From NCBI GenBank assembly GCA_046563655.1, contig CM102290.1, positions 2,728,001-2,792,000 of the forward strand: 64,000 bases of DNA. The letters run 5' to 3'. Under the pieces are notes generated by a model, which did not search any database, was not told where the DNA came from, and saw nothing but the letters and a program-made list of their open reading frames with translations. Within the stretch, counting starts at the first letter, position 1, and every line of letters begins with the position of its first letter. This document shows positions 9,401 to 64,000 of this stretch, piece by piece. This DNA is from Yuukianura sp. NJ FZ-2021 (taxonomy: Eukaryota). The translations under genes were made by a program, and so were the position numbers.

Positions 9401-12400
9401 ACTAGGAAGGGAGACAAGACAAGCCGTTTCCAGCAGCAACAGCAGGAAAGCTACAAGGATGAGCCATTTCCTTTCTCTGAGGTTTTGCTTTCACTGATAC
9501 TCAAGCGTGCGGGTATTCAACAGTGACCGCATTTAAAGTTTGAACTTGGCGTAATACGATACTCCTGTATAAAAAGTGGCGGGTGTTATAAATAAGTATG
9601 GAATTGGATCAAAAGCTGAGCGTTTGGAACGCTTGGAATTTAGAATTCCCTGGATAGAGTTTTAAATTATTTCGTCAATAAACAAATCTCGGAAGCACAT
9701 AAATCAAATCCTATTCTTCCTCTCTCCGTTGTCGTCGTAGTCGTGTCTCAGCATCAGATTTTCTCCCGCCTCAGAAGAAACTACCCGGGTAAGACTATAA
9801 AGCTCCCGTTTTCCCTTTAAAGTGGAGACAATGGGAAGTCGATTATTAATACAGAAGGTTATTCTTCATCTCCAGCAGCATCTAGGCACCCTCCAACCTC
9901 CTTTCTCCTGAGTCTTTAATGCCGTTGTTCCAGGTGCCACTCTCTCCTGCTTTCTTTTCTGTGCAAAAAGAAGGTTCAATCTCCAGGAAAATGCAAATTC
10001 AACTACTTGTGCTTTGGAACACTTCTTTCCTCCTACTTTCCCAAACTAACTGAACCAAACCTAGGCTTAAACTCCTAAGAAAAGTGGAAACTGTGGTTCT
10101 GGAAAAGAGAACAACTTTACTCCACTTTCACCCAACCCCTTTAATCCATAAACTGAATTTTCATCTTCAAAAACCTCAAAAGCAAACTACTACGGCCAAA
10201 GTCTTCTCAAATTATGGAACCCAAAAGGGAAATTTTCCAGAAAAAGTCAATTCCAGTGGCAGTATCATCTCATCATCTCCACCTTCTCTTGTTCGTAAAA
10301 AGTGTAACGCTCTTTTTCCAGATTCCGTTTAGATAACCCAGTGTCTCCTCTCTAGTACGATATTCACAATTTGATGACAAGACAAAAGACATGAGAGTTT
10401 GATACTTTCGGGAGTCTAGTAAAAACTGTTCTCACTTTCCTCGAGAATTTCAAATAAACTGAGAGTTGTTTTCTTCCCCTGAGGTACTCATCTCCCAATC
10501 AAGTACTTATTTACCAATTTCCTCTTACGTCACACTTACACTGAAACACAAAAGACACACGGAGATAGTAGAAGTGAAATCTTCATTGATTGATATTGCA
10601 GGCTTCCCCAGAGGACGGCACGGCCGACTAAAAAAGAGTATCAGGATCCTGTTGTTGTTTTCTCTAACTTTCACTTCATGTGAACTTACCTTAGCGCCCT
10701 CTTTGTTTTAAACCATCAACAAACGATGACAAGGAGAAACTACCTTACCTAACGTTAGCTTCCATAAGCGTCAACATACCCTTGGTCAAAAAAAAATTGA
10801 AAATGTTTTTGATGGAAGCCTCCCCCCCCCCCTTCTGTTCAATTGAGCAGTTCTCGGACAAAAAAAAAACAATTTCTGAGGAAAGCGAACGGAAATGGTC
10901 GTAACAAAAACGTTGTAAAAGGGAAAAAACTGCAACAAAGTTGTCAAAAAAAAAGCTTCTTTTGTGGATCAGAAATTGTCCAGTTTGAGTTTGAAGAGGG
11001 TTTACAAAAAGCGAAAAAAAAATGGGAAGGGTCGGCCCCTTTAACTTACATAAGCAGAGAAGAGACAGAGATGTTTAGTAACATTGTACTTACCGTAGCC
11101 ATCTCCAGTTTGCCAGTCCTTGTCCGTCGACGATTCTACCGCTGCAAAGAGTAAAGTCAATGTTCAAACAATGAATGATGAATGGAATGATGAGATATGA
11201 GAGACGAGCAGGTCAGTGTTGACTTTTTCGTTGATTGGTACCGGTAAACTGTCGTAAATAGTTGTAATTTCCTGGTTCGTTTGCCTCTGTCGTTTCAGTT
11301 TAATGCCCTTGGATTCCAGAATTCGTCCAGTCCGCCTGTTTTAGAATAATTAACCTTTAGTTAATAAATCAAATTCAAAATTCAGTACCAGCTTAAACTA
11401 AGACTAACATATTCAACGACGGTTACAGCGATTGTATCATGTCATCGCAAATTACGTTTGTCTTACCAGTTGAATCCACGTCGACGAACCAGCACCAGAA
11501 TGATCCAAAACCAATTAATGGATTAATTGTTCATGCGTCTGTTGTACTTAGGAACTAATTAGTGGGCGTTCTGGCAAGCCAGTTAGTATCTGTGTTGAAT
11601 GTAAACAAAACAACAACAAACACAGATGACGGGAAGAGTTCCATATCACAGTCTATCGCAGTAACCACTAGAATGGAATAAATCGCACGAAAAAGCTCCG
11701 CAGCTTTCTCTACTGCGATCCAACCTCCATGCCACCCCAAAAACGACTGACTTCGCGGGCAGGGTTTGCGACCAACCGCTCTAGAATTCCCACAAAATCC
11801 TTGTAGTTAGCACAGGTAGTTAGATATTTTTAAACAAAAAATAATTACTAGAACACTGTCCGTTTAAATTTAACTGTAAATTTAGCGTACGTACCTATAC
11901 TCCTATGCAAGTACATGTACAAGTAAATTGCAATATTACTTCAAAGGAAGTACAAAGTCAAATGCCACGTTACCTTGTGATTTGTACTGGAAATGCAAAT
12001 AAATATATAATACTATAATATCGTAGTAATAAAAGCAGTAATAGCTATTGCATACTTCGTAATCGGGCGCCATATCGTACTTCCCTGCCCCATCCGCGAC
12101 GACAGACGATGGTTCCGTTCCGGTATAAAGCGACTGGGGTGCTAATTGGAGTGACCGTAACAGACTGTATCACTTCTTTCCTTGTCACTTTTGAATTAGG
12201 ATTTTCCCGCTTTATTTAAATCGAACGGGGAAAAACACAATGCTCTCAAAAACTCAAACTCCCTAGGTATCCTTCCTTCCTTACGATAAATTGCCGGGGA
12301 GTGCGGTCAGATCCCTTTGGTATTTGAAATTAATTAAATAATTGTAGGTATTAATTAATTACGTACACCCCTCTTATTGTTTCAAACGGCAAGCTTCAGG

Positions 12401-12473
12401 GTTAGGGTTAACTACTCCGCGAATTATCTAACACCCTGGTCAACCTGCATCACAGCCTAGGTCACCAATCACC

Positions 12474-13439
12474 ATGTTCAGAAAGTAAGTTGACAATCAG
12501 CAGTGCCGACTGTGCTGACTGCTGAGCTGAAGTGCTGATTCAGCACAGCACCAGCATGTGTTGCATTTGGATTTGGAGAACTAACGTGATGTAATAATTG
12601 TCTACTTACTTGTCAATTGTTGTTTTTAGATTCAGCGAAAAGGAATCCGTTTCGGGTATGCAACAATTGAAATCGTCGGTCCAGAAGCAAATTAGAAACA
12701 AAATTCTAGAATATTATCCAGAACTTGATCCATACATCGAAGGTATTTTTCCCAAGAAAGATAGCTTCAAAATCGTTAAATGGTAAGCTTAAATCCCGTG
12801 TTGTTACATCTGTCAAAACGATTGTGCAGATCAGTGGATACGCCTTGGTTTTATCGTTCTGTTTTAGCCATGATCATATCGAGATTATAGTGTCTGGTAC
12901 TGGAGAAGCCTTATTTTTCAAACACAGGGAAGGAGCATGGTTTCCCACATTACGTCTTCTTCATCAGTGTGAGTGGGTCACTGAATCATGCTACACAATA
13001 AAAATATGACATAATTTCAGATTTTTAGTTAATTTCAGGATAGCGTAACTGGACATTTTTGTTTTTGTTTTTTAGATCCATTCATGCTTGCTCAGGAACA
13101 AGTTGATCGCGGTGCCATAAAGTTTGTTCTCAGCGGTGCAAACGTAATGTGTCCTGGTCTTACCTCTGCTGGTGCCAAGCTGACAGATGTTCCAAAGGAT
13201 ACGATTGTTGCTGTGATGGCTGAGGGGAAGCAGTTCGCATTAGCTGTCGGAATTACTGTGATGTCTACTGCAGATATGTGAGTCTGAAGAAGATGATATA
13301 AATAATTCGATAACTAAAACCAACGTTAAATAGTGATTAACTTTAACCTTGTTATAGAACGAAAATCAATCGTGGAATAGGAATCGAGATTGTCCATTAC
13401 CTCAACGATGGCCTCTGGACTTTGAAGCCAATGAAATGA
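12474..13439 (+). CDS. MCTS1: Malignant T-cell-amplified sequence 1 (MCT-1; PUA-domain translation re-initiation factor), 182 aa, 5 exons
   Basis: Exons 12474-12484, 12630-12782, 12868-12968, 13076-13277, 13358-13439, all GT-AG and in frame. Protein MFRKFSEKE...KIVKCHDHIEI...[11 protein letters not shown]...[22 protein letters not shown]...HYLNDGLW is diagnostic. AATAAA at 13680-13685. Confidence 0.96.
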
Positions 13440-13920
13440 GTGGGTGTACTTTCGCCTACGTCACAACACTAATGCAGAGAGCATGGAAGACCCCGTTTGT
13501 CCCGCGCATGAAGTACCCTCACTCGGATTCATTATGCCAGGCAGTCACGCAAAATTTTAACTTAAATTAAGTAAATCTTAATTTCTTACATCTTAAGTTT
13601 TCAAACTAAGAAGTCTGGATTTGAGGACTGCTCGGAGAAGTTGATTCCAAATGAACTACCCCCTGCAGAACAAAATACCAATAAATTTTCATCAAACTAA
13701 AGCTGAGGGCTTTCGGAAATTCATCTCATGCTTTTCTCCAACAGGATATCGTCTTCGTCATGCAATTGGTGATTCTATGGAACTTCTTTCTCCGAGCATT
13801 CCTTCCGTGTTTGTTGACAAGACGAGGGAGGTTTTGTCCCGTGCCACTTTTGGTGGGCTGGACTCAGTATCTCCCTACGACAAGATTCAGAGGAGCCATA
13901 AGGTTACAATTTGAGTTCCT

Positions 13921-13927
13921 TATAAAT
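13921..13927 (+). promoter_or_regulatory. Candidate TATA box of the neuropeptide gene
   Basis: TATAAAT about 190 bp upstream of the precursor ATG (14114) and downstream of the MCTS1 poly(A) signal. Confidence 0.4.
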
Positions 13928-14113
13928 AGGATGCGATTCTGTCGTTCCTTCATTCTACCCGTGAACACGTCTCTCTTATCTTCTCCAACGACTTCATCGC
14001 TTGGAGTCATCGTCAACAGGACACTTCAAGCTACATTCACATATTCGTCGGCAAGAACAGCTTAGTTTACATTCTCTTTTAATAACTCCATAGTCGACCA
14101 GGGTCACGTCACA

Positions 14114-15973
14114 ATGACCTTACTTTTGTCACTCATCACCTTTACTTCCCTCGTCTGCGTCCATGGTAAGTGAAAAATTCAGTATCATTGTATAGTTGAT
14201 GGAATCAATTGTTAAGCGCAGCTTGTTCTTAGTTAATTTGAACTTGCGCTATTGAAACAGGACAACAGAACGATAAGGGGACGTCAATGATTCCCTTCCC
14301 ACGGATTGGACGAGCCGATCCGCGATTCTTCATGGAAGGAAAGCGAAGTGGGAACTCACTCTCGCCAGGTCTCATCCCCTTTCCACGAATTGGCCGATCT
14401 GACGGTAAAATTCTGCCAAAACTATACTGAACCTTGACATTCCATTTGTAACTGTTTAATAAGCTTTGTTCCACAGGAATGCATGAATCGAAGCGACAGT
14501 TGATTCCCTTCCCGCGAGTTGGAAAGCGACCTTACTGGCGCGTACCCGTGGACTCATACCCACTGGAGTACGAAGACTACTCTTTTCCAATGGTTGAGGT
14601 TCCGTCGGTGTCCATGATTGGTCCGGAGTTCGGTCAGGGAATGTCCGACGAGACTGAGGCAGAGAAGCGAATGGCTGGGGCTACTGGCCCAAGCAATAAC
14701 AACAACAATGGTGGTATGTGGTTTGGTCCGAGGCTTGGAAGGAGGAAGCGATCTGTAGAGAGCAGCAGTGACTCCAGTGTAGTCGACACACGTCTACTGC
14801 TCAACATTTTACATAATTTTAACTGGGCCATTGTCCCTCTCAAAGGTAAGGCAGGCGAGGAACAGTCTTAATTTTTTGGCCATCAAGTCTGAAATGGTCA
14901 CATGACTTAATGTTGTCCATGGACGCGTCGTTCTGCGCATGGTAAATGCCCTTTTGATTTCTGTATGTCAAATGTCTGTTTCCGTTGTCTCTGGTACAGT
15001 GTTTGTATCGACCTTAGTACTGTGCTCCGTCAACATTTGAGAAATGTACATATCCTTTCTGAAATTTTGATGAACATAAAATAAAATTACGACAGAGTCA
15101 CGAACAAAAACTGTTGGCCGTAGTGCATTCTGTGTCCTTTGTGTCGTAACTTTTTCGTTCATGTCAGCGCCTCATAAATAAACCAATGTAATTCAATGTC
15201 GTAATTACGAAATATTGGTCGTTCAAGTCGTCAGTCGTTGTCATTAGTATGCCTTAACTGTCCCAGTCGCTGTCCATTAGAAAGCTAAGCCCTAGGACGT
15301 GACGTTGACTGGAACTGTTACAGAGCGGAGAACGTTTACACCACGACTTGGTCGCAGTTCCTCAGAAGAGAGTCCACTGAGGGGAATTTCTCAGAGGGCG
15401 GAGCCTTACACGCCAAGGTTCGTTGAAATCGTTCATTATTCATGTTGACAGACCGCAATAAGTCGTGACAAAAGAGACTTAAGTTGTTGGCGAACTTGTA
15501 TTCATTCCAGGTTGGGAAGATCATCTGAAGGGGTCTCCGGAGGGGATTACGATGAGGATTCCAGTGTTCATCGCTACTCCAGAAACAACAATGACAACAC
15601 CAGGACCCAGAAGAATCCTAAGGGACAGTCCGAAGAGACTAATGTTGGCGGAGTGCCGTTCGCTCCCAGACTTGGTCGAGACAACATGATTCCAAGACTA
15701 GGCAGAGACAACATGAGTCCAAGGCTTGGGAGGGATAACATGAGTCCAAGACTTGGGCGGGATAACATGAGTCCAAGACTTGGCCGGGATAACATGAGTC
15801 CAAGACTTGGGCGGGATAACATGAGTCCAAGGCTTGGCCGGGATAACATGAGTCCAAGGCTTGGCCGGGATAATATGAGTCCAAGGCTTGGGCGGGATAA
15901 CATGAGTCCAAGGCTTGGCCGAGACAACATTAGTCCACGACTTGGAAGATCAAGTGACGATGACCGGGAGTAA
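14114..15973 (+). CDS. Capa: Combined CAPA/pyrokinin (PRXamide) neuropeptide precursor, 373 aa, 5 coding exons
   Basis: Exons 14114-14165, 14261-14404, 14477-14845, 15324-15417, 15511-15973 (GT-AG, phases 1,1,1,2). Signal peptide MTLLLSLITFTSLVCVHG. Periviscerokinins GTSMIPFPRI-GR, SGNSLSPGLIPFPRI-GR and QLIPFPRV-GKR. Tryptopyrokinin ...GGMWFGPRL-GRRKR. Pyrokinins TFTPRL-GR, AEPYTPRL-GR, VPFAPRL-GR and ten DN(M/I)(S/I)PRL-GR. AATAAA at 16041-16046. Confidence 0.95.
15680..15949 (+). repeat. Coding 27-bp tandem repeat, 10 copies (DNMSPRLGR)
   Basis: Unit approximately gataacatgagtccaagrcttggscgg. Variation is almost all at third codon positions; copy 1 is DNMIPRLGR and copy 10 is DNISPRLGR. 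Confidence 0.97.
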
Positions 15974-17126
15974 ACCTGCGTTAACTTAAATGACATTAAA
16001 CAATCCATGTTAATTCGAAGCCCCAAAATACTCAGCGCGAAATAAATTTTGTTTGCGACAAATCGTCTTTGGGAAGCAAAGTTTAGTTCGAGTAACGGAC
16101 GAGATGGAAATTGCTAAATTTTTACTTGAACTGGAATGGCTTGAAGTCCACCCCCATAAAGCATTTACTAATTGAATAAGAATTCTGCTAACAATTAGAT
16201 GTATAAAATAACACAGTCAAGGGGAAATGTTGCTTTATATTAATTTTGGTGACTTTAATGTGATGAACTGGCCTTAAAGTGACTTTTAATCTTAATGTGC
16301 TCGTATACAAAAGGAAAATTATACTTTCGCAGCAGTATTGCTTATGGTAACCGGGATACTGGAAAAATTAAATAGCCTTTTGCTCTAATCCCTGACGGTC
16401 GTGCATGCCTTTAACTAAATTCTGGCAAAATATGACTTAAACATGTTCAATAGTCTTATTAATTAGCAAATTAGAAAATTATAAGTTTAGAAGTAGTAGT
16501 CACATTGCTATTAGCAAACTGGACGAAATTGGCAAAAACAAATTGAGGACGAAAAAGCTTGGGCGGACATAGAAAAACGTAATAGTAGATGTTTATATCC
16601 CAAATTTAGACTAATCCATTCAGAACGACGACGAAAAGATGGCCTATCCCTGCCTGAGTAACTTCAACTTCAAAATGCAAAGTACTCTACAGCGTTCTAG
16701 TTGAACTATTCCATACCCCTCCCGATTGCAATGACTAACGTCAGACTAACATTTGACTCCTTTGCAAACGAATTGGTTCAAAACATTTGAGGTGAGATGG
16801 ACTTGAATAACCAATTGCGCAAATACGTTACATATAAATAGGATAGGAACAATCTAGGCGGAACATGAAGGGTGTCCAGCCCTAATTGATTGACGTCTAA
16901 GTGGCAGGGTAAAGTCCGGAATATCAAAAGGTCAACCTGGAAAAGTGAAACGCTAACACGAGCATACAGAGAACTACGCCTTTGCATTGTAGGATTATTG
17001 GTGCGTGTCGTACATTTTGCATTCTAAGTAGAGATTATAGATGAGATGAAAGCAGACTTACAGGGTGCGGTAGTCTGAAGTGACGTTGGCTTTTGAAGAA
17101 TGTAGTAATGATCGTTTGTGCTTCGT

Positions 17127-19546
17127 TTATATTAGAAATATTTCGTCATGGTGCATGATGAGAAAATCGGTGAAGGTATTGATGGGAGCAATTGCGGCTA
17201 GCGACAGGTTCAGACTCGGAGACCAAAGCAAGTTTGGTCCAAAAACAACAGCCAGGTTGGATGACGTCATCTTGTTCAAGTCGCTCCTATCTGACACCTA
17301 TAAAGCAAACGATAACATTTTATCACCACATCTTAGGTCAATGTAAGGATTAACGACCGTCATGGTAGCCACTCCGCCATTTTTAATCGGTGACTGAAGT
17401 AACCGTTTCAACACAACCTAAGTAACAAGTACGTGGGAACCGTAGCAGGTAATTTGGTCGGAATGGCAGAGGTCGGCAGGCGTATATGGAATTTAGGTTA
17501 GGTTTGGTTAATCTTTCTAATGCTAGGGGTAGGTTAGGTATGCCGACCTCTGCGTTTTCGACCAATCAAATTCCGACCAAATTACCAGGAACCCGTGGGA
17601 ACGGTTGCCGCAGTGTAACCACTTATTGTAGCCACTGAAATGGAGTGGCTACACTGTGTGGCTACAATGACGGTCGTTAAACCTTACCCCAACCCAATTT
17701 AGGACTGTGTATTCATTCGAATACACAATTCACTGACCTTCGCGAGGAACCGAATTATATACTTCAAAAGTGCGTAATTGTCTTCAGGGAGTTTCTCCAA
17801 TATCACTTGCTTTACAAACGGCCCTCTGTCATCCTTCGTTAGCTCTAAAATAGCAAACAAATGGTTAAAATACTGCTGAGATTTTTAGTTGTTAAAACTA
17901 GATTTCGTAAATTCAGTACTTGAAAAGTCTATAACTTCGTCAAAAAGGTCGAAGGTAAGAAGAGGTTCCTGCAGCTCCCGTAGAAATGCCTTTATCAGCA
18001 CGGCAGCTAAGTGAAAATCATTCCCAAAGTCAACTGTTTCACCTCTGTTGGCTTTTGCCTGGGATTCCTTGACCACGTTAGCGGAAGCCGATCGACGAAA
18101 TAAGCCTTCGGTAGCCAAAGCTGAAACATGCAATAATAAATAATATTTAAAATAAACACTTAAAATCATACTACGACAGAACTTTTGACATAACCCAAAA
18201 CCTGTCATTTGTCTCGTCTCACCTTCCGGCTGACTCAGGAATTCGACGCATTGTCTCACAATAGGCGGAATGACATCATCATTGTTATGTTCCTTGATAA
18301 ACTGAATTGAAACTCCGAACTGTTGTGTGTCCAAAGCTGCGTGGAACGTCGTTGTTGAGGTAGGGGCGTAAGAGGGAACGGATTTCGTAGCTTTCGCTCT
18401 GAGTTGAAGATCATGCCTAAAATGATTAGGTGACATTTAGCCTGAAGAACGTTAAAAAATAGGAAATTGTGATAATTTGTTATTACTTACTCCAAAACTT
18501 GCTCCGGTATACAAAGTTGATCCAATTTAATTTGCTGATTCAACTCCGCAAGGTAATTGATGTACATGACTTTCTTACCGAATTTTGCACTGTTCAATTC
18601 AACAGCAGAGACAAGTTATTATGCAGAAAAAATGGATGGCAGCCATCCGATGGCTGTTCAAATGCTGCTGAACTTACCTAATGGCGGGCTTGAAGAGCTG
18701 AAAAGTGAGTTTGATGAAGTTTGTAGGGTGAACGAGGTAAAGTGATTTAAGATTCTTCTTGTACTTTCTTTCAAATGCTCGATAGGCCTGCCAAAGCCAT
18801 GTCAGGGGAGGTTTATTCTTGCTATTGAGTCCATGATGAAAGTAGACTAAGGAGTAATCCTGCTCCACATACTTGTCAAGGGTGTACAACAAGTATCTAA
18901 AAGTGAGAAGGGTGTCAATCATATTTGAAGTAACATCAACATTACGCGAAGTTCAGTATTCACCTGAGGAACCTATGGTGATCGAATGTATGATTTGGCG
19001 GCAACTTGCACGAAGCTAGTACTATGATTTTTCTGCCATACGCATCATCGCCAACTACTTCAACGATATTATGTTTAGCAATGTCAGAATAGTCTTCTTC
19101 GTCTTGAAGCGGAGTGGTAGGAATAGAGTCCGAATCAGCTATAAACGGCGCTGCCGCTAGTTCCTCTTCAAAATTGTCTTCAATGGTCCCGTCGGAAACG
19201 GGTGATTCCAGGTACTCAAACACCTTCACTTCTTCGATATCTGAAAATCAAAAGTACCAGTAGTTGCAAATTGTAGTGAATAAATTGAAAGAAATAGGAT
19301 AACAACTATACCCGTAGGAGCAGCTCCCTCCAGCTCAGTATCGTCAAATTCCAAGTTTGGTTCGTAGTCATGAAAATCTGAGAGACTCCGGTACTGGTCC
19401 TCGGCTTCTTGAGCAGAAGAGGCTGTGGATACAAGAGAATACATGACGTACGGACTGAAACAACGACATTCAGACCATTGACAGTGACGACAATTCGTTT
19501 ACTCATACTCATACTCACCATCCTTATTCTCCACGACTTCCTCCAT
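17127..19546 (-). CDS. RhoGAP68F: Rho GTPase-activating protein with BCH/CRAL-TRIO (Sec14-like) and RhoGAP domains (ARHGAP1/8, RhoGAP68F family), 468 aa, 9 coding exons
   Basis: Exons 19546-19519, 19422-19312, 19240-18964, 18896-18678, 18589-18491, 18416-18223, 18120-17920, 17844-17738, 17297-17127. Motifs: [32 protein letters not shown]...[21 protein letters not shown]; arginine finger [26 protein letters not shown]. The first exon is the least certain. Confidence 0.94.
17346..17684. mobile_element. MITE in the last RhoGAP intron, TA-flanked
   Basis: TIRs of about 27 bp: aggattaacgaccgtcatggtagccac and gtggctacaatgacggtcgttaaacct (2 mismatches), with TA on both sides. Confidence 0.75.
17441..17593. 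mobile_element. Nested 153-bp MITE with 9-bp TSD (Mutator-like)
   Basis: Direct repeat cgtgggaac at 17432-17440 and 17594-17602. TIR core ggtaatttggtcggaat / attccgaccaaattacc, plus inner inverted repeat gcagaggtcggca / tgccgacctctgc. Confidence 0.75.
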
Positions 19547-20299: not shown

Positions 20300-21103
20300 C
20301 AGTGGATTCTCTAAATAAGGGACAGGAGCTCCTCCTCTTTCTCACTTTCACTCGAAGTCGCGGTACCGTAAAGTTTTAATTTTGGAGGGAACGTATGTTT
20401 CAGTTTATCGGCTTATTTTTTACGATTGTTTTTTTTTGGTTAATTTTTTTTTTGGTGCGAAACAAAGGTAATTAAATAATTAAATGGAATTAACTAATAT
20501 TAATATATATATATTATATATATCTGCGCACAAACTGCGCAACAGCGCACAACCTGCGCAACAGCGCACAACCTGGGCAACAGCGTACAACCACAGCGCA
20601 CAACCTGCGCAACAGCGCACAACCTGCGCAACAGCGCACAACCTGCGCAACAGCGCACAACCTGCGCAACAGCGCACAACCTGCGCAACAGCGCACAACC
20701 TGCGCAACAGCGCACAACCTGCGCAACAGCGCACAACCTGCGCAACAGCGCACAACCTGCGCAACAGCGCACAACCTGCGCAACAGCGCACTGTATATAA
20801 TATATTATATTATATAACCTGTTTAATAAGGGTATATTCACAGCGTAATTTGCATATAATATACCATATAATATTGATTAGTATATAGATATCACATATA
20901 ATTAGCATTAATATATGAATATTATGTATATTAATATTAATTATATACTCTGAACTTCGAAACAGGAAATTTTCATTAGAATGGTGTTCCTAGCCTTAAA
21001 TTCCCTATAACTGACCGCTTACCAGAAATCTTACGGTACTGGGGGAGGCGCCTACTACCAATCCTCCAATCGTGATTTTTTCCCTTATTTAGAGAATCCA
21101 CTG
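20300..21103. mobile_element. Non-autonomous Tc1/mariner-like element (MITE)
   Basis: Perfect 23-bp TIR cagtggattctctaaataaggga / tcccttatttagagaatccactg. TA duplications at 20298-20299 and 21104-21105. No transposase ORF. Confidence 0.85.
20535..20790. repeat. 19-bp GC-rich minisatellite, about 13 copies
   Basis: Unit ctgcgcaacagcgcacaac with one degenerate/partial unit near 20573-20605, flanked by very AT-rich sequence. Confidence 0.95.
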
Positions 21104-21844
21104 TAGCTCATTTTTTCGCTGCCTAATAATTAATTCTTATTTTGACGATGCTCGATTCAAAATAAAGTAATGATCGGGTAGGCGCCAGACTTACTATCAC
21201 GGCACACGGTTTGCACAGAATTCTTTCCGCGCTCGCCGGCGCCGCACCAATAACGCATGTGTGTGAAATCTCTTGAAAACGTGATTCCGAGATCAGAATT
21301 TTTGTTGAAAGTAATAAAGTAAATCGTTATATACTAACATAAAATAAGTTTTTGTTGCGAAAAGCCGGTTCCGTTTCAGAAGAAACCAAAAAGAATTTAA
21401 CTACTTCCTGTTCTTCCTGAACTAGTTCCTGTTTACATACGCTGGAAGAGAAGTAAGTGTTAATTTGTAAAATCATGTTATTGAATTGATTGAAACAAGT
21501 TGTCGCCTAACGCAAACTTACTTTTAAAGTCTTTTAGGTATTTCTTTCAAGTTTTAACTATATAGGAAGCTCAATTCGCCCATCCTTTTGCTCTTTGTCT
21601 TGGTCCTCGTGTTCCTCTTCGGTCAGATTCCGCTGGATTTAGTCTTACGCGTCCGAAAGGTGTGTAGACAAGGTAACTGGTCAGTATGACTCGTGACATA
21701 ATGTATTGAATTACAGGAAATCTTAACCTGACCTCCAATATAAAAATCACTAAATAAAATGCCGTCTGTATTGTGGTAGGCTACAGTAAATTCAAGCACT
21801 CCATTCACCAGTTGCAGCCCGCAGTAACCCGTACTACCGTCATC

Positions 21845-22238
21845 ATGTCTGGATTCTCAACCGAAATGGATTTATCAGGTGGCGCTGGTGGAGCAGAAAC
21901 ACAACAAGGAGAAGAATTACAAGAGTTCCTTTACCTCGAGCAACAACGAGCTCAGCTTAGGTCGCAGGTACAGTACAGAAGATGTAAAAGCAAAAGTTAA
22001 ATCAACTACGAGCACTGAGCAGGACGCTAACACGTTAAAATGCTTATTTGGACTACGACAGATTCAAGTTTTGACGGATACTTGTTGGGAGAAATGTGTC
22101 GATAAACCGCAGCCGAAGTTAGATACGAAGACAGAATCCTGCCTAGAGAACTGTGCTGCCAGGTTCGTTGACGTTACACTTCTCATAACGAATAGATTTG
22201 CCCAAGTACTTCAAAGGTCAGCAGGTGGAATGCAATAG
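21845..22238 (+). CDS. Tim8: Mitochondrial import inner membrane translocase subunit Tim8 (small Tim chaperone), 99 aa, 2 coding exons
   Basis: Exons 21845-21967 and 22062-22238. ELQEFLYLEQQRAQLRSQ|IQVLTDTCWEKCVDKP...ESCLENCAARFVD contains the twin CX3C motif in a Tim8-type context. Confidence 0.93.
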
Positions 22239-31700: not shown

Positions 31701-34700
31701 GAACAAAGGCATTACACCGCTTGAATCTCCTACAGTTGAATCCCTTAAGCGACTAATAAACTCCTAGTATTTGAACAACATAAAACTTTTCAAGCTAATT
31801 TCTAAACAAGTGGAGAAGACACTTCCACTTCTGCCAGCATTTGTCGCAACTTTCACTTTTCGTTATTATTAGTTTCGCAGAAACTTTTTTTTGTGCAAGT
31901 TCTTTTTTAAAAAAAAACTCCAAAAAAATGCTTGAATTACACACTTCAAAAATAAAGAGGTTCAAGCGCCTAAAAAGCCTTGGGAAGCCTAAAAAAAATT
32001 AGGAAACCTAATACACTTGACTTTCTTTTCAAGAATTTTTGAAAATTGAGATTCAAAATTTAAGAGCACCGAAATTTAATAAACCACTTCAATGTTTACT
32101 TTAGCACTTTTTTGGTTACTAAAGTGGTTGAGAAAGTCATAGTAGTATTTGATAGAGTCACTGCAGTGAGTGCCTGGAGATTAAGGAAGAATGAACCATG
32201 AAATTAGATTGAAGATGGCAAAGTTTAAGCAGCGGGAAAAGAAAGCACACGAAAGCTGCAAACGGTTTCTGGAGTGTCAAAAGTCAAAGAAAAAATGGAG
32301 CAGAGGATTTTCTTCTTGGATCGTCTGATTCAAATCTCCGTCCTTTTGAAATCTACTCCCGCCAGCGTCTCCAGAAGCTATTCTAACCTAACTAAAACTC
32401 CCTCCAGTCGTCGATCATAGCCAACCTGATTTAAGGTCTACCCAAAAGACATTTCCATTGTCTTCGGAACTTTCTCCTGAAGGGAACAATGGGACACACA
32501 CCGTGAGATTTCGTCATGAATTGAAGACGCCAGTTAGAACTTTCTTATGTTCTCAGAAATCAGTACGGAAGAGAGATGACACGATTTTCCTGGACCGTTT
32601 CACTCATTGTCCAACAACCGTTTGGAACTGGCCCAAAACATGTTTTTCATCATTTCCTGCTCAAACGACTCCTGATTTTCACATTGCCAATTTTCTTTTA
32701 CAAATGAAACTGATGAAAATCGCATCAATAAATGTCTGCCAAACGGCTGACAGTTTAGGTCCGGTCCAATTCATCGTCTGTTTAATCGTGCCGCTCAGAA
32801 CAAAAAAAAATCGAAACTGGCTCCCAAACTTTCTCTTAGCATTCCAAACCTAACAAAATAGTCGATACACCGTTGAAAACTATGTTTCGACGGTTTTCTT
32901 TTTTGGTTTTTCAGTAGGATTTAGTTTAGAATCTTCTACACATCCTTTAATAATATTTTCTGACTCATGATCAGATCTGCCAAAAATATTTAGTTCCCAT
33001 GCCTGTAATGTTAACACAATCAATATTTCTGGTCCTCTTCTTACTAAATATTTATTTACCAATAGCCTTATTAATGTTAAGTTTGTAAATTTTCCGAGCA
33101 TTTTTGGTAAATATAGTATTTATCTAAATATTTGGCTTGTTTTGGTAAATATTTTTGGCAGGTTTGTTTATAATTTAAAATTGTCCAAAGAAAAAATATG
33201 TAACATGTTTTTATGATGCTAAATCAACTCACCTGAGCACGTGACTGTTCTCCAACCAGGATGACATCCCGTGTAGCATCGTGAATTGGAATGTCGGAGA
33301 TGTAGAGACCTCTGGTGGTAAGTCCTTCGAGGCCATCAATGAGCGGTGACCCCAGGAACAGCAAAGACTGAGACTCACAGCAGTCAATCATCTGACCTTT
33401 CAACTCCATGCCCTAAAATATCCAGAGGTCAAGATAGAACAAAGCACCATCAAAAATCTCCCCATCTTTATTGACAGTCCAATAATCTCGAGCCGAAGAA
33501 GGAAATAGTTACTCCCTCCATTCTCCTCCGCTTTTTGATTTAACGAGAAAGTGGAAAAGGGGAAATGGCCTCAAATAAAATCCCGCTTTATGACCCCTCC
33601 ATGTCATCCAAAGTCAAAATAGCGCCGAATTTGAAGTGGATCTTTAGCTATTGGGTAATAAACAACAGCAAATGGGATTGGAGAGCCTTCGTGTACAATT
33701 CATTCTTTTGATTAGAGGCCAACAAAGGGATTAATGCCCAACTCTGGTCCCATTGGAGGAGATTGAGAGAGAGTTGGAATCAAGGTTCCTTGACAACGAA
33801 AAGCTAATTTCATTTAACAGGTTGGGTACTACCACGCTTGTTGACAAAAAAAAACGAAAAATTAGCACCAATTTAGTACCAATCTGAAAAATTGGTATCA
33901 AATCGTATGAAAAATTTCAAAAAAAAAATCAGCGTTATTGTTATGACTACGATGCCCCGAAATGAAAAGATACTTTTTTTCTTGCAAAATCAGAAAAAAT
34001 GATGCATTGCCCAACCTGTTAAAGAAAATCAAGAGTCAACAAACCTTGGCTGGAATGTTGAGGCTGTGATCTTTGATGTTAAAAGGGCGGAAGTTTTAAA
34101 TCCAGCGGAAGTATATTGAAATGGGGGTACTTCTTCATGACAAAGGGCCATGGGGCATGCTTTCTCCTGATTAACTGCCGGGTTAAATCTTACCCAAAAA
34201 TTACTTTTTTCTTGGCGCAGAAGACAATGGAGGAGAGCAAGGCAGAGATGGGCTAAAAAAAGAAACAAAAAAAATGTGGGAGTTTTAAAAACAAACCTCA
34301 GCAAGTTGCTTGGCCCCATTATTCCTTGCCAAATGAACAAGACGCAGAAGGAATGGTGTGTTCAGTCGTTGGAAAATTGTGTCAAAGGAAATTTCATTTC
34401 CTAAATGAGGACGAACGAATTGAAAGAAGTGAGTGACTGGGATGGAACGGGCAGACCAACACGATCCCACCGATTGCTTCTGACTCAGTTGTTGTTGCTG
34501 ATGGACCAGAAAAGTCGGAGCAAATAATTTCAGGAGCGACGACCCCAGTTGAACAATGCGTAGGTCTTTGTCCAGAATGAAATGCCAAGGAAAGGCTTCA
34601 CTGAACATCTTTACAGACAGAGCAAGGTCCCTGGACACTTCGGTTTTCTTAGTCTGGACTTTCTTCCCGCCGACTTCCAAAACTTCCTTGGGCATCAGAC

Positions 34701-37700
34701 TCAATTTGTATTGGAAATGGAGCTCCCGGCTTCCGTCCAGACCCTCTTCTGATTGGTTTACAATTGACTCTGCGGGGTAACTGTCAATGGTTACCTTGGA
34801 TGAATAGAGATTTGTGCAAATGGCAGTTAGGAGACTTTGAAAAAATGGACCGAGGAGCTCTACGGCGGAGCTCGTTTTGTAGACGACAGTGTACCGAACA
34901 ACTCCGGATTCTTCGTCAAAACCGTCAAGAGAACCGGCACTTCCCGAATCTCGCGTCGTGATGATCGTTTCCCTCATGTTTCCCATCATTGCTAACCTAT
35001 GTCAACCGGAACATTCAAAATTGAGCAATGCAACTTTAAAATGAAAAGTTAAAAATATAGAAAGAATAGGGGTTGGAATTCACAATTTTAGAAAAAAAAA
35101 AATTCTTACAACTTTCAATAATTGATTCAAAATAATCAAAAAATTACCCTTGGCTTGAATGTTTTAGTACTTCAAGTACACCGTCCAAGTTGATTAGGAA
35201 GTTTGCGAAATCTGGTCCCAGGGCTTTGTATGCTCTTTCGAAATGTGACAGACAGTTGGAGAAATACACAAAACCCAACGCCATTACGAAGCTCAGTTTC
35301 TCCTGTTCCATCCCTAAAAATTCAAAATTTCAACAACAAAAAAAATGTTTGTTTTATAAAGATTAAAATTAAATTCTTCTTTAAATTAAATTCTAGAAGT
35401 CCTATGTTTATTTATTAATGGAATTCCGTCGTGGCAATCCCAGAGACTAAGAAGTGAGTTGAGATAGTTACGTTTTTAACTTGTATTTTTTTACGTGGCG
35501 AATCTTTTGTAAAGTTTCTATTTTTTGAAAGGTTCCATGCCATTGTTTCAAATGAAATGTTTCAAATCGAATTGCTTCAAATGAATTGTTTCAAATCAAA
35601 TTGTTTCAAAAGGTAAATTGTTTCAAAAGGTAAATTGTTTCAAAAGGTAAATTGTTTCAAACAAAATTGTTTCAAATCGAATTGTTTCAAATGGTCAATT
35701 GTTTCAAAAGGTAAATTGTTTCAAACAGAACTGTTTCTAAAAAAAATTGTTTCAAATGACCATAATTGGTTCTATAGTTTGTCTATTTTAAGAAGGCGGG
35801 TTTGTTTCGTTGATTTTTTCGCTTCCATTGCGACGCTTATGGCAAAACTCAGTTTTTGAAAAACACTTTCTCCATTAGGTTTGTATACAAAATTTCAAGA
35901 AATTGATAATTTCTATGTTAACGGTCCATAAGGCGACTGAAATTTTTTCAAATTTGAAAACCGCCTTCTAAAAATAGACAAACTATAAAGGTAAATTGTT
36001 TAAAAAAATTGTTTCTAAAAAAATTTGTTTCTAAACCCAAATTGCTTCTAAAGGGAAATTGTTTTTAGAAATAATTTCAAATTAACGAACTAGTTAACAA
36101 CTTAGATGTTTGTTCCAAAAATGTTTATTTTAACAAAATCAAATACCATTATTCAAAAAATGTAAAGACATGAGCAACAATGGCTATCAGAAGTACGCAA
36201 GCGCGAAACGAACAATTCAACTTAAATTCAAATTCAATTCCTAAATCTAATTTCTAATTACCCAATCACGCAATAAAGTACTAACCTATAAACTTAAGTA
36301 AGTAATAACATACAAAACTAATTCAAAACTAAAACTATCAGTCAACGAGTCAAAATTGGCCATTAGAAACAATTTATTTTTAGAAACAGTTCTGTTTGAA
36401 ACAATTTACCTTTTGAAACAATTGATCATTTGAAACAATTCGATTTGAAACAATTCATTTGAAGCAATTCGATTTGAAACATTTCATTTGAAACAATGGC
36501 ATGCTCCCTTTTGAAACAAGGTGCTTGATGGAACTAACCATAAATTGAGTAGTTGGATCCGAAGTAAGTTACCGAAGTGAAAAACTTTTAGTTGAAGAGG
36601 AAGAGGAAGAAAAGAACTTTTCAGAGGGCGGAATAAGAAAATAATGGCGAAAGCTAAAAAGAAAGTACAAATCCAACCTATTCCATCGTAACTGCACAAA
36701 AACTCGCGTGTTTTCTCCATTTTCATTTCACCGCCAAAAAATAAAAATAAAATGAACTGATGCGTACCACCGTACTCTCCGCAGTGATTATAGCATAGGG
36801 AGTTCAGGAACAGGAGACACACGGGGTGTGGAAAACAGTTTCAAAGTTGAATTTCAACTGTAGATAAACTTTTATGTAACGACGAATCTGTATTTGAGAT
36901 CTCGAAAATTTCAGATTTCCCACATAATGAAAAAACCTTTGTTGATTTCCAAAACCATTCCATTCCATTTATCTTTCGGATTCAATTTTTCTCATCTGGG
37001 ATTTTTTTAGACAGGTTTTCTGTTCTTTTCCCTGGAAGTTAAACTATTTGTGACCAACGTTTGTACCTTTTGGGTGTCAACGTTAGGATCAAGGTTCCTT
37101 GATAACTGAATTGTATTTCCTGCAACATGTTGTCTATTAACTAAGGGTTTTTCAAAAATCTTGGTTCAAACAACTTTTACCACCAATTTTGCACCAATCC
37201 CATTTAGAATACATGCAAAAATTACCATAGAAAGCCAGATTTGCCAGTTTCAAATTTTCAAAGTTCGAGTTATCGGACAACCTGGTGTAGAAAAAGTTTT
37301 TTTTTTGTTTATTAGGATATATTTAAATTGTGGAAATGGCAGAAGGTGAATTCTATTTTGACAAGTTGTAGTTGTCAAGAATTTGGTTTCTATTTTGATT
37401 ACGTCAACCTGTCACAGTTCCAGGATAGTTTTCCCGTCGCTCCTACCTTCAGCTAGTTTACATTATTCTGGAACGTTGGAAAGCCATATTCAGGTTCAGC
37501 CTAATGGGATAAGTGACGGCTTCACAATAAACGTCGCATAGTCATGAACTTCTGCTCTTTTTTCAGCGACATAAGAAGCTTCGTCGACGAAAGAACAGTT
37601 AGAGAAAGCCGGGAGTTTTTTCGAGAAAGTTGAAATTTGGTTGAAAGTAGACATTTATCACTTTCTCCATAACCGAAGAAGTCAGAGCGTTCCTGCTGCA

Positions 37701-55300: not shown

Positions 55301-58300
55301 CAATTGCCAAAATGATATTCTGGTTTCTCCGCCTCTTTTCGAGGACAAAACTTGAATTGAATCCAAGAAAGTTCACAGGCTCTCGACCTCTTTTGTCGTG
55401 CTTTGTGGCAAGAGTTTTGTCGTATAGCAGAATAGTAAGTTGGACAAATTAGAAAGTCCCTTGTGGTAACGTGCACGACATTCCGCTTCTTCCAGGACCT
55501 CCTCTTTACCATCTTAGCATGAATTATGGGCACTGGAGTGCCAGTTCGAGTGGAGTTAAACAAAATTATGTAGTTGAATAAGCTATGCTATGATCAGAAG
55601 CAGAAACTAGCCAAAGCACTGACTAGTCTAACTGAGACTAGGTTTATTTGCCACGATTAGGCTTCTGATCGCTTTTACAGCTCAAACTGTTTCCATTAGC
55701 AGCTATCAAAGTATATTCAAAGTCCTTTGAAAACGAAGTTTGTTTGAAGCTAAGATTTCATTTGAAGTTTTAAACCGAGTTCTAAAAGACTTCTGCAACC
55801 ACTTTTGAAGTGGTCTATAAAACCACTGAAAAACGTTGTAGTTACTACAAAAACTAAAACGTTGTAGTAGGTGTCACATTTTTTGAACTGGGAGTTTCTT
55901 AAGTATGTTTGGGGGAAGGTGGGCCGTAGATACTTGTGAGCTCAAGTGGTAAGCTTCACCTGAAAAGCTGTAAACATGAAGGAGGAAAGGCTGCATAACA
56001 CAAAGTAAATATTTGTGCATGGATTTTCTCTACAGTGAAAGCAAAGGGAACTGACTCTGACCTCAAATTGGCTTCGAGCAAAGGAACGAGAAATCCCTCA
56101 TGAATAATTGCCCAGCTCTGACTTCACTCACTTTCACCCTCCCCTCAGTCTTAATCAATCTGCTTTCACTACACTTTTTCCAGCAACATACTAAGGTGTA
56201 CACCTACGATTAACCTAACCTGTAATTTACATCAAAGTCACTAAAATTACATAAACTAGCCTTAGCAATGTACTTATCTACCATAATAATTTATGTAGAA
56301 TCAAAACGTTAACGTAACAAAACTCGAAATTCATTGTGGTACAAAAAGTGTGGGTCGTTGGAAAAATTTGTGGAAGAAGCGAAATGATATTTTCAGTGTA
56401 AACTTGGGCGAGTTAAAAAACATGTTTTGTTTAAAAAAGAATCAATTTTGTTTCATTTTTTTGCTTAGTCTTTTGTTTCACTCAAAGTAAACAATATTTA
56501 TATTTGTCAAAATAACACCAGAAAAAGGAACTTGAGCATCAGTTTTAAATTGAAAAACGGGCAAAAAATTGAAGAGCTGCCGCGTGCTCCCTGTGGCGAT
56601 GTGTCGTTCATGTATTTGGTTTGTACTGTTGTGTGTCTTGTTTTTTGTATCGTCAAACCTTCCAGAAAAAAAACGGAAGAAGAAAGTTTGGCCGCTGGCG
56701 AAAGTAATGTACTGTTCCTTCGTAAGGTGGAATTATATTTTCCCGCGTGTCAAGTTCCTAGAGTGAGTATCTTCTGCTCAAGATACAAGTTGGTTTTCTC
56801 TTTGGGGAAGAACATAATGTTTTCCTTAGGAAAATATAATTGAGTGGAGTCGTGCTTCACTGCTTCAGTCATCTTGAAGCTCAAAAACTGCACGAATACT
56901 TGCCACTGTCACGGAGGTGCTAAAAACCTTTCAAGTTTTTAAAACTGACAAAAATTGTCATTTCAGGAGTATGTTCGTTTTCGGAAAAATGTTATAAAGA
57001 TGCGTTCGAGTTTGAAAAACAAAGAATTCAATGCTGTTGAGTCCCTTACAGGAAAAGGGGATCCAAAAATTTCAAATTTTGAACCATGCTATTTCGAAAA
57101 ATTTCTTTATTGAAAATTTTTGTTATGACTTGATTTTTATAAAAATTTTCAAATGAAATCGAAAGTCTTGAATTTTTCCAATTCTTGGCATAACTCTGTA
57201 AATTTTGAACAAAATTTTACTCTTCAAAATTGTTTTGCCTAAATTTTTTTTCAAGCCTTTTGTCATGTTTGCTATTCAGTCGCACAATATTAAAAGCTGA
57301 GTTTTTATTGAACCGTCGACTTTTCTGACAAATCATGATGGATCATATTGTATTACTTTCTTGGCCACTTTTACGTTTGAAATTTGAGATTCATCTTTTT
57401 TGTTAACCTGTGTTCTGTCTAACCTTTGTAATTGATTGCAGTTTAACTAACCTAACCTATCCATTTTCTTCAAAGATGTAAAATGTCAACGTTACATTTA
57501 GAAAAAAAAAGTGATTTAAAAGCTCGCTTTTTTGTTGGAAAAAGACTAGACAAAAAACCTGATTTGCTTTTTTCTTCGACAAACTTGATGTCAAAGAGAA
57601 AGTTCTACACTATGTTTCAGAAGATTTTTCAAAAAGCGTATCCCGACGGCGGCAAAACGCTGCTGAAGGGTTCCAGAGCTGAAAGTTAATTTCTTTTTGG
57701 AACACGGTGTGCTCATCATTGAACTTTCCAATTTTTCGGCAAGGAAGCGAAAATTCCTTTCTTCTCGTTTGACTCATTATCTGGACAATAGATGCGGAAA
57801 AGAATGAAGAAAAAATGCGACTCTGAGAAGTAGCACGGTGTTAAAGGCAGACAATGGCAAAAAACACGGAAGGTTCGCGGACTCCAAAAAAACCGAAAAA
57901 CCGCGTTTTTTTTCTCTCCTCTTTTCCGCGAGTGCCGTTTACGAACGGCAGTGATGGTGAGTAGTGCACGGTTAGTTTGAAACCGTGGATTGCTATCGAT
58001 TCTCTTAGCAGTGGTACCTAAAGCCTAACTTTCTCTTCGAAAAGTGTAACGCAGTAAAGAAGAAGATGGTTAGGCATCCTTAAGTGTTCGTATTATTACT
58101 TGCCTCCCCCCTTTGCAAACATTCTCATCATCAAGTTCCGTCATCCACTGCGACGACCACGGCAGTTCTCAAGCCATTACTACATTCCAAGAAAAGCAAA
58201 CAGAAAATAATAATCCACTTTTCGGCGAGTGCTTACTCTTATTTCAAATTCTTTGTTACCAATGCCGAATACTGCTGTGAAAGTGAACGGAACAGGAAAG

Positions 58301-62200: not shown

Positions 62201-63097
62201 TTCAATTTCCTTTAAACTTTTCTGTCCATTTCTTTTCTGAGTTTGAGCATAATAAAATTTTTCAAATGGAAAAATGAAAAAGAACGCAGTAGGCACAATG
62301 TTATTGGAATCCTTTCAAAAATATTCAACCGTACAATTAAATTTTGTCTACTTTTCTGTGAAAAAGAATTCAAAAAACATTTTTTACCCAAGTTTCTTTG
62401 TTAAAAGCTGTTCCGTTTGAACAAGCTTTCAGAGATTCTTTGAGTCGCTACACCTTCTGACATTTCCATTTTTTCTGCTTGTACTAACTCTTTACAGTGA
62501 AAGCATTTTTGACTTTGTAGAGAATAATTCTTGTGCTTTCAAAAAAAAATTCTTTCTTTTTTGAAAAAAAAAACACAACAGCTTTCCTTCCGTTTTGGGT
62601 AAGGTTAAAAGGAAGAGTTGGATAGCCTACCTTTTGCTCTAAACCAACCAAAAAGAAAAGCCAGAAAATACTTTCGTAATGAAATGCTTTGGGAAGTGAC
62701 GGACTGCGAAAGTTTTTACTTTTGTTAGAAGTAAAAATTCCTTGTTTTTTAAATTCTAGATATCCCCGCTCAGGCCATTCTGGAACTTTTTGGCAACATG
62801 TTCTTCGAATTTTGTGTCGAATCTGGATATGATAGAATTCTTCAAGTACTGGGAGCGACGCCTCGTGACTTTCTGCAGGTAATTCCAAAAACACGAAAAA
62901 TTATTACTTGGTCTATACTTCATTTGAACATGTTTGAACAGAATTTAGACGCACTACACGATCACTTGTCAACAATTTACCCTGGAATGAAGGCTCCTTC
63001 ATTTCGATGTACAGAGAGACCTGAAGATGGAGGACTCGTGCTTCATTACTACTCTGATAGACCTGGACTCGAGTCCATTGTGATTGGAATTGTGAAG
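59218..63097 (+). CDS. Gycbeta100B: Soluble guanylate cyclase beta-1 subunit (GUCY1B1 / Gycbeta100B type), 5' part; continues beyond the window
   Basis: Exons 59218-59220 (ATG only), 59909-59982, 61423-61523, 62760-62878, 62942-63097. Protein [26 protein letters not shown]...[11 protein letters not shown]...[28 protein letters not shown]...APSFRCT...HYYSDRPGL is an H-NOX domain with His105 and the Y135-S137-R139 motif. Confidence 0.96.
61630..61870. mobile_element. hAT-like MITE (CAAGGTT family) with perfect 8-bp TSD
   Basis: caaggttt...aaaccttg termini flanked by attgcaac at 61622-61629 and 61871-61878. Confidence 0.8.
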
Positions 63098-64000
63098 GTA
63101 CGGTTTTCCAAAACTAAAATGTCTAAACGTATTTGAACAAAATGCTCAATTTCTTTTCAAAAAGAGATTTCAAAATTCAAAATGACTTTTCAGTTGGTCT
63201 GTTTGGACCAGAGCTATAAGTAAGATTAGGCGTCTAAAACTGATTTGAATGTGGTAGATAGGAAGTGGACTTTTTGTTTCTAGTGGATACTGAAGTAGGC
63301 CCATGGGGCAGATTAGGCTTTTGACTTTCCCCAACTTCCTGTTTTAGTCAAAAACCCATTCCTCAGACGCTTATTTCAGACTTATGAAAATGTTAAGGAA
63401 GAAGAAACGCTTTCTTGTGCTCATTCCAAACTTGTAATTGAGTTTTAGAAACGATAATCGACTGCTTTAAGTTTTAACGAACTTTCTAGCCCACCTTTCA
63501 AAAAAATGTTACGCTGATCTATTTTTTAAGACCAAGTTTAACTAACAACGTGGCACAACCTAGCCTGTCTGCGCTTTTAACTTATGATGACGTGAGTTTT
63601 AAGCTAAACTTTTCTCAAAATTATTACTATTTTCGAAATTCCTTTCTCAAAAACCTAGAAAGGAATCAAAGGCGAGGTTTTTCCTTATCATAACTTCTTA
63701 AGATTGTCTACTAGTTCATGTATGTTTTATTGATATGTCTAGTGCGGTTGAATAGTATACCTCTGTGTTAGCTTAAGATGATCTTCATTTTTAATCAAAA
63801 AGTTGTTTTTTTTTCTAATTTAAAAAAAAATTCCAAGTTTGAATGAGCTTCAGGATACTTGGCTTTTTCAAGAGAAGGAAATTGAAGAAGAGGGAAAGTG
63901 GAAGAAGTTGTGGAGGTGTTCCGGTGTTGCCTACAGCACAAAACCAAACTAGAATTAAACATTTCTTGGAGTGCTACTAAGGAAAAGCGACAGCATCTAG

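Follow-up and report, generated by a model that had tools for sequence, protein, structure and literature searches.

A probable collembolan-type capa/pyrokinin precursor gene with a ten-unit array of pyrokinin-derived peptides in Yuukianura sp.

The window analysed herein, a 64,000-nucleotide (nt) stretch of contig CM102290.1 from Yuukianura sp. NJ FZ-2021, contains at positions 14114-15973 of its forward strand a spliced neuropeptide gene whose sequence very probably identifies it as the capa/pyrokinin precursor gene of a collembolan-type hexapod, orthologous to the single capa/pk gene of Collembola. Its precursor carries three periviscerokinin (PVK) sites, one tryptopyrokinin (tryptoPK) site and 13 pyrokinin (PK) sites. 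Genes that combine these three ligand classes are already known for Collembola, and the general architecture described here is in print, such that the gain is incremental. The new feature is an in-frame array of ten PK-derived units near the 3′ end; otherwise the gene is of the described type. This example indicates that tandem amplification in frame can raise the number of PKs in an ancestral-type hexapod capa/pk gene from about 4 to 13 with conservation of the peptide, and it provides an exon-level annotation for a neuropeptide gene that was overlooked by tracks based on open reading frames (ORFs).

Gene structure and collembolan orthologues

Joining five exons on the forward strand yields 1122 nt, a length divisible by 3, that encode an open frame of 373 residues terminated by TAA. 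The borders of all four introns are GT...AG, and a pyrimidine-rich tract precedes each acceptor. The features of the locus are as follows.

13921-13930 (+): candidate TATA box, TATAAATAGG, 184 nt 5′ of the ATG, with a putative promoter function
14114-14165 (+): exon 1, start codon and putative signal peptide (MTLLLSLITFTSLVCVH plus the first base of a Gly codon), phase-1 donor
14261-14404 (+): exon 2, CAPA-PVK-1 (..GTSMIPFPRI-Gly-Arg) and PVK-2 (KR-SGNSLSPGLIPFPRI-Gly-Arg)
14477-14845 (+): exon 3, PVK-3 (KR-QLIPFPRV-GKR), a spacer, the tryptoPK (KR-MAGATGPSNNNNNGGMWFGPRL-GRRKR) and the conserved tail LHNFNWAIVPLK
14846-15323 (+): intron 3, 478 nt; introns 1, 2 and 4 are 95, 72 and 93 nt
15324-15417 (+): exon 4, 94 nt, PK-1 (ERR-TFTPRL-GR) and the start of PK-2 (..QR-AEPYTP plus AG of an Arg codon)
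15511-15973 (+): exon 5, completing PK-2 (R-L-GR), then an acidic spacer, PK-3 (..GGVPFAPRL-GR), the ten-unit array and a tail of SSDDDRE before the stop codon
15680-15949 (+): in-frame tandem array of ten 27-bp units, DNMIPRLGR once, DNMSPRLGR eight times and DNISPRLGR once
16041-16046 (+): candidate poly(A) signal of the long transcript, AATAAA, 68 nt 3′ of the stop codon, a match to the consensus only

The only ATG of the exon 1 ORF is that at 14114, and an in-frame stop codon lies 5′ of it at 14063-14065. Residues 1-18 are hydrophobic and devoid of charge, with V-H-G preceding Gln19, and were judged by visual inspection to be a putative signal peptide; this N-terminus aligns with those of the four orthologues described below. 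Exon 4 is required to keep the frame, as an earlier note on this DNA had proposed: when it is skipped, exon 5 is shifted into the wrong frame, that of the short ORF at 15483-15689. The coordinates, exon joins and total of 17 PRXamides given in that note also agree with both the spliced frame and our count of motifs.

The precursor contains three FPR(I/V)G(K/R) sites, one WFGPRLGR and 13 other PRLGR sites. The tryptopyrokinin motif, GGMWFGPRLGRRKR, sits in exon 3, and its WFGPRL-Gly-basic core is invariant in the four orthologues. The 13 PRLGR sites are located in exons 4 and 5, downstream of the tryptoPK and in frame with exon 3, a join that is also found in the orthologues. A six-frame scan of the 64 kb for PR[ILVMN]G[KR] words returned 17 matches, 16 of them within the gene and one isolated at 57188(-), compared with a mean of 0.25 in 20 shuffles of the window; the 17th site of the gene was missed because intron 4 interrupts its motif. 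Exon 2 matched the Pfam family Periviscerokinin (PF08259; 21.7 bits, cut-off 15) and exon 5 matched PBAN (PF05874; 24 bits, cut-off 22.7). Counting against the assignment, exon 3 alone fell below both Pfam cut-offs (15 and 9.7 bits).

Comparison with other proteins placed the gene more precisely. Among 177 candidates, exon 3 used as a query against longer proteins had four matches at E <= 0.01 (P0003-P0006; E 4.5e-33 to 5.9e-20), all four of which are precursors with three PVKs, a tryptoPK and PKs. P0004 is from Allacma fusca, P0006 is Folsomia candida LOC110845107 isoform X2, and the 90% cluster of P0005 includes an Orchesella cincta ‘PBAN-type neuropeptide’ and an O. dallaii protein. The four share one order of parts, starting with signal peptide, ..IPFPR(I/V)G, ..PGLIPFPRIG, KRQLIPFPRVGKR, GMWFGPRLG and LHNFNWAIVP(I/V)K. 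After the NFNWAIVP motif follow the unit encoded by exon 4, a second PK and then 0 to 3 terminal PKs; the exon-4 unit reads ERR-xFTPRLGR in P0005 and P0006, SRR-TFTPRLGR in P0004, and is degenerate in P0003. The window protein is 49-60% identical to these four, with zero indels at all four predicted junctions.

The introns themselves could be compared in metagenome contigs, in which a profile of P0003-P0006 detected 10 loci. Three of these (L001, L002 and L005) are genomic and contain the full gene, exons 1 to 5, while L003 spans exons 2-3. We read all four introns in L001; the donors of exons 1, 3 and 4 and the acceptors of exons 2, 4 and 5 in L002; and the exon-4 donor and exon-5 acceptor in L005. 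Every one of these junctions matches the window in position and phase. The division of the PK-2 motif AEPYTPR|LGR by an intron, likewise predicted in the earlier note, was borne out: intron 4 splits the Arg codon as AG|G in the window, and the same phase-2 split (AG|G or AG|A) occurs in all three contigs. The closest relative is L001, with exon 2 90% and exon 3 62% identical; exon 3 is also 62% identical to P0011. The candidate TATA 10-mer recurs unchanged at the corresponding site of L001 (2521-2530, with the ATG at 2730). Because introns are kept and junctions are colinear in relatives, the gene model is backed by conservation and not by splice consensus alone.

These data can be set against the published classification of capa/pk genes. 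Derst et al. 2016 (BMC Evol Biol 16:51, PMC4770511) describe as pattern A the old arthropod state, in which one gene encodes PVKs and PKs, as in Myriapoda and Chelicerata, and as pattern B the basic hexapod state, a single gene with a tryptoPK as third ligand, seen in every proturan and collembolan examined and in some Archaeognatha. Two genes, capa and pk, are found in Diplura and Zygentoma through independent duplications, and winged insects, like Zygentoma, have the peptides spread over two genes (PMC4770511). Some collembolans also make a transcript with PVKs and tryptoPK only, termed pattern B1 (PMC4770511). The single-gene state of Collembola is restated in later reviews (PMC9853942, PMC10755894).

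The window gene conforms to collembolan pattern B/B1, as exemplified by F. candida LOC110845107, A. fusca and O. cincta/dallaii, in having a signal peptide, three PVKs, one tryptoPK and NFNWAIVP(I/L/V)K, followed in the same order by ERR-xFTPRLGR, a second PK and terminal PKs. Its three PVKs and one tryptoPK are exactly the averages reported for Collembola (3 ± 0 and 1 ± 0; Table 1 of PMC4770511). It departs from them in having 13 PKs, compared with 1-5 in the relatives retrieved and a published average of 3.6 ± 1.1, the surplus being the ten-unit array, whose units show Met or Ile at a position taken in most relatives by Phe or Tyr. The earlier description of an undivided gene for all three ligands is thus upheld by orthology and colinearity with collembolan genes and corresponds to pattern B, although as a kind of gene it is not novel, having already been published for this group (PMC4770511).

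With the capa and pk/pban (hugin) genes of insects it shares FPRV/I-amide PVKs, a WFGPRLamide tryptoPK, FXPRLamide PKs, the same processing signals and matches to both Pfam families, but it encodes on one gene the three classes that Zygentoma and winged insects distribute over two. As in the pattern A genes of chelicerates and myriapods, exemplified by the single capa genes of ticks, which encode 2 PVKs along with 5 PKs (PMC8887807), PVKs and PKs come from one gene; unlike pattern A, which lacks a tryptoPK according to PMC4770511, the window gene has one. A precursor from the mantis shrimp Oratosquilla oratoria (LOC143027910, P0007) resembles it in carrying many PK paracopies in tandem (10 PRLG sites), yet has neither a PVK nor a tryptoPK site; its array arose independently and from different units. 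Three further proteins (P0032, P0036 and P0044) are PVK and PK precursors without a tryptoPK, with FTPRLGRRKRS at the tryptoPK position and ..SPW(A/T)I(V/I).. where the window has NFNWAIVPLK. These sequences hint that the motif with which exon 3 closes predates the hexapods.

Processing of the precursor can be predicted from what is established for neuropeptides in general. The prepropeptide would enter the secretory pathway and lose its signal peptide, and prohormone convertases would then cut at KR, RR and RKR sites and at single Arg residues with an Arg at -4, as at the PRLG-R sites. A monobasic cleavage rule with Arg at -4, -6 or -8 was reportedly set out by Veenstra in 2000. Carboxypeptidase would trim the basic residues, and a peptidylglycine amidating enzyme would convert the C-terminal Gly to an amide. 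The predicted output comprises three CAPA periviscerokinins (..FPRI/Vamide), one tryptopyrokinin (..WFGPRLamide), three pyrokinins with an aromatic core (TFTPRLa, ..PYTPRLa and ..PFAPRLa) and ten heptapeptides, DNM(S/I)PRLamide or DNISPRLamide. The receptor targets of these peptides can likewise only be surmised from the sequence of the precursor; in insects, the three peptide classes have separate receptors (PMC4770511).

Intron 3 and a possible short transcript

According to the earlier note, one transcript could supply all of the ligands, which is probably not the whole story. The strictest form of this proposal is that the genome has no PRXamide (capa/pk) gene besides this one, that a single constitutive transcript gives all 17 peptides without a short isoform, and that cell specificity arises solely through differential processing. 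It draws on the fully joined long forms seen in all four long relatives, on the canonical splice sites of all four introns and on a window free of a second such gene, and we regard it as possible but rather unlikely. Speaking against it are the B1 transcripts of a number of collembolans (PMC4770511), the label ‘isoform X2’ on the Folsomia match, which implies that more than one isoform is annotated in that species, and features of the exon-3 boundary and of intron 3 that would suit an alternative 3′ end.

First, read-through of the exon-3 donor would add GKAGEEQS before a stop codon at 14869-14871, and intron 3, at five times the length of the other introns, contains AATAAA at 15080 and 15177. 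Second, in P0009, a relative close to Folsomia, the signal peptide, three PVKs and tryptoPK lie in one uninterrupted frame that terminates at the exon-3 boundary; its C-terminus, ..VPVRG, extends one residue beyond that boundary, as a B1 transcript would encode. Third, a short block is shared by the window (15041-15057, +) and L001 (3703-3722), consisting of GAAATGTACA followed by TATCCT, with 2 extra bases between them in L001. It lies 7-24 nt 5′ of AATAAA in both sequences, in an intron that has otherwise diverged, and contains UGUA, a motif linked to polyadenylation factors.

On this evidence we slightly favour an isoform switch at the exon-3 donor in this species. Use of the donor would probably decide the output: all 17 peptides would be encoded by the long transcript when the donor is spliced, and only the PVKs and tryptoPK by a short transcript with its 3′ end inside intron 3. 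If true, the switch would make the locus a compact case for studying how the outputs of PVKs and PKs came to be separated ahead of the split into insect capa and pk genes. Several observations weigh against it. The status of P0009 as a spliced transcript is deduced from the contiguity of its frame; the shared block was identified post hoc, in the closest relative L001 only, and is absent from intron 3 of L002, L005 and L003; an intron of such size and composition is estimated to contain about 0.4 AATAAA by chance; and P0011, P0012 and P0015 extend beyond the exon-3 boundary as well, of which P0011 is uninformative on RNA, being a genomic ORF that retains intron 2 in frame.

Another locus, L004, reads AAG G|GCAAGG at its exon-3 boundary (930-960), such that its intron-3 donor would be GC and not GT. 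We initially considered L004 as a transcript and dropped it as RNA evidence, as it contains an intron with a stop codon and ends in sequence resembling a sequencing adapter.

The ten-unit pyrokinin array

Tandem Repeats Finder reports the array as a repeat of period 27 with 10.4 copies and 90% matches (15664-15945). DNMIPRLGR comes first, followed by the eight DNMSPRLGR units and, last, DNISPRLGR. The ten units differ at 10 nt sites, 8 of which vary synonymously, compared with an expectation of 18 synonymous changes among 81 possible single changes (22%); as the sites are not independent, the rough binomial tail of 1.7e-4 serves as an indication only. It points to a peptide sequence that may have been kept under selection while the array was amplified. 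An antisense ORF of 179 residues across this region (15574-16113, -) was rejected as a gene, being the repeat array read in reverse.

Relatives carry one or two terminal units at this place: PFSPRLGR and DHINPRLGR in L001, PISPRLGR and DHYSPRLGR in L002, PFSPRLGR and EPFSPRLGR in L005, and one DHMSPRLGR unit in P0095, the exon-5 ORF of a relative. The array therefore arose in the lineage of the window, where the last PK unit was amplified. Where the earlier note had presented the large PK set as part of an ancestral-type gene, the set proves to be derived and lineage-specific, the closest relatives L001 and P0095 having one unit each. The unamplified units of these two relatives already have Met or Ile at the position of the core Phe, and the residue thus appears to have persisted.

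The extent of the amplification became apparent from a profile search of 1.84 billion representatives, which gave 206 matches at E <= 0.001, the best 150 of which were listed. Among the proteins retrieved, 13 other than that of the window have all three ligands, and the most PKs in any of them is 5 (P0006). The highest PRLG counts are 11, in a protein of a different type (P0016, 974 aa), and 10, in the Oratosquilla precursor. A fragment, P0028, contains at least 8 PKs in repeated GDPFSPRLGR units, which shows that amplification of terminal PKs is not confined to the lineage of the window.

It is less certain what the array peptides do. The FXPRLamide-type core (Phe/Tyr-X-Pro-Arg-Leu) is present in the three PKs TFTPRL, PYTPRL and PFAPRL. 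Several points tell against an active role for the other ten: their core is M-S/I-P-R-L or I-S-P-R-L, without an aromatic residue; across 303 PRLG sites of the retrieved relatives, the ‘F’ position is occupied by Met only 4 times and by Ile once; and FXPRLamide is described as the minimal core required for activity in a review (PMC10755894). The non-aromatic core and the rarity of Met and Ile in relatives render the activity of the ten peptides uncertain, and they are best described as PRLamides of PK descent and not as canonical FXPRLamides. Among the points against our overall reading of the gene, protein searches with exon 5, each with 8000 scored candidates, found no close relative with the array, nor the exact protein; the matches were an Oratosquilla PK precursor and an unrelated protein (2 of 8000) in one search and a Tuta absoluta protein (1 of 8000) in another. 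The limited literature collection that we searched contained no mention of the array peptide (DNMSPRL, or MSPRL and MIPRL forms).

These findings would suit an array that is a neutral or recent product of replication slippage, with heptapeptides that are inactive or unreleased and three canonical PKs as the effective ones. The missing aromatic residue, the 90% likeness among units, as in a recent expansion, and the failure of the protein searches to return an array-bearing relative are all compatible with this view. We nevertheless consider it quite unlikely, as the reading frame is unbroken across 270 bp, P-R-L-G-R and the Arg at -4 of the cleavage site are kept in all units, the variable sites are largely synonymous (P about 2e-4 by the rough binomial), and Met or Ile is found even in the single-copy units of L001 and P0095.

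Taking the array and intron 3 together leads to a bolder proposal, which we put forward tentatively and hold to be improbable as a whole: that in this lineage the capa and pk outputs are split by RNA processing and not by duplication, such that the short transcript would terminate at a conserved UGUA-AAUAAA region of intron 3, and the long transcript would mainly yield a new ten-copy PRLamide heptapeptide with a Met/Ile core and a potency or receptor preference of its own.

Gene number and neighbouring sequence

No second PRXamide locus was found in the six-frame motif scan, which covered this window alone; that the gene is unduplicated in the genome, as the earlier note had it, is only presumed. 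Independent duplications in Diplura and Zygentoma (PMC4770511) offer a precedent for separate paralogues elsewhere in the genome, or for a derived fusion of once separate capa and pk genes, but either is highly improbable given that the order PVK-tryptoPK-PK is common to three named collembolan genera and three genomic contigs, that the intron positions read in those contigs (L001, L002 and L005) all match, and that all collembolans examined have one gene (PMC4770511).

Upstream of the capa/pk gene lies a multi-exon gene (12630-13440, +), putatively MCTS1/Tma20-like, in which Pfam recognises a Pre-PUA (E 5.9e-12) and a PUA (E 3.1e-12) domain. Its exons have 80-92% DNA identity to L001 809-1820, and the order of the PUA-domain gene followed by capa/pk is kept in L001. 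Conserved blocks at 12624-13439, considered as regulatory elements, were rejected because they are exons of this neighbour. Between the two genes, a non-coding block of 68 nt (13658-13725, +; L001 2237-2303) is 87% identical, lacks codon periodicity and contains CCAATAAATTTTCATCAAAC. Such a block might act as a promoter-proximal element for capa/pk or else form the poly(A) region of the gene upstream. An Rfam search of 11500-16500 returned only two matches, both below threshold (25.1 and 20.5 bits, with gathering scores of 50), which we took as chance.

Further along the window are a RhoGAP-domain exon (17885-18436, -; Pfam E 4e-15) and an exon encoding the Tim10/DDP zinc finger of a small chaperone for mitochondrial import (21828-22238, +; Pfam E 3.7e-17). 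A tandem repeat at 20484-20888 is open on both strands, with a repeated NLRNSAQPAQQRTTCATAH reading, and is probably a minisatellite and not a gene. An HNOBA exon (34285-35001, -) and an HNOB exon (62753-63136, +) lie on opposite strands, which suggests that the window contains two genes, or parts of genes, of the soluble guanylate cyclase type.

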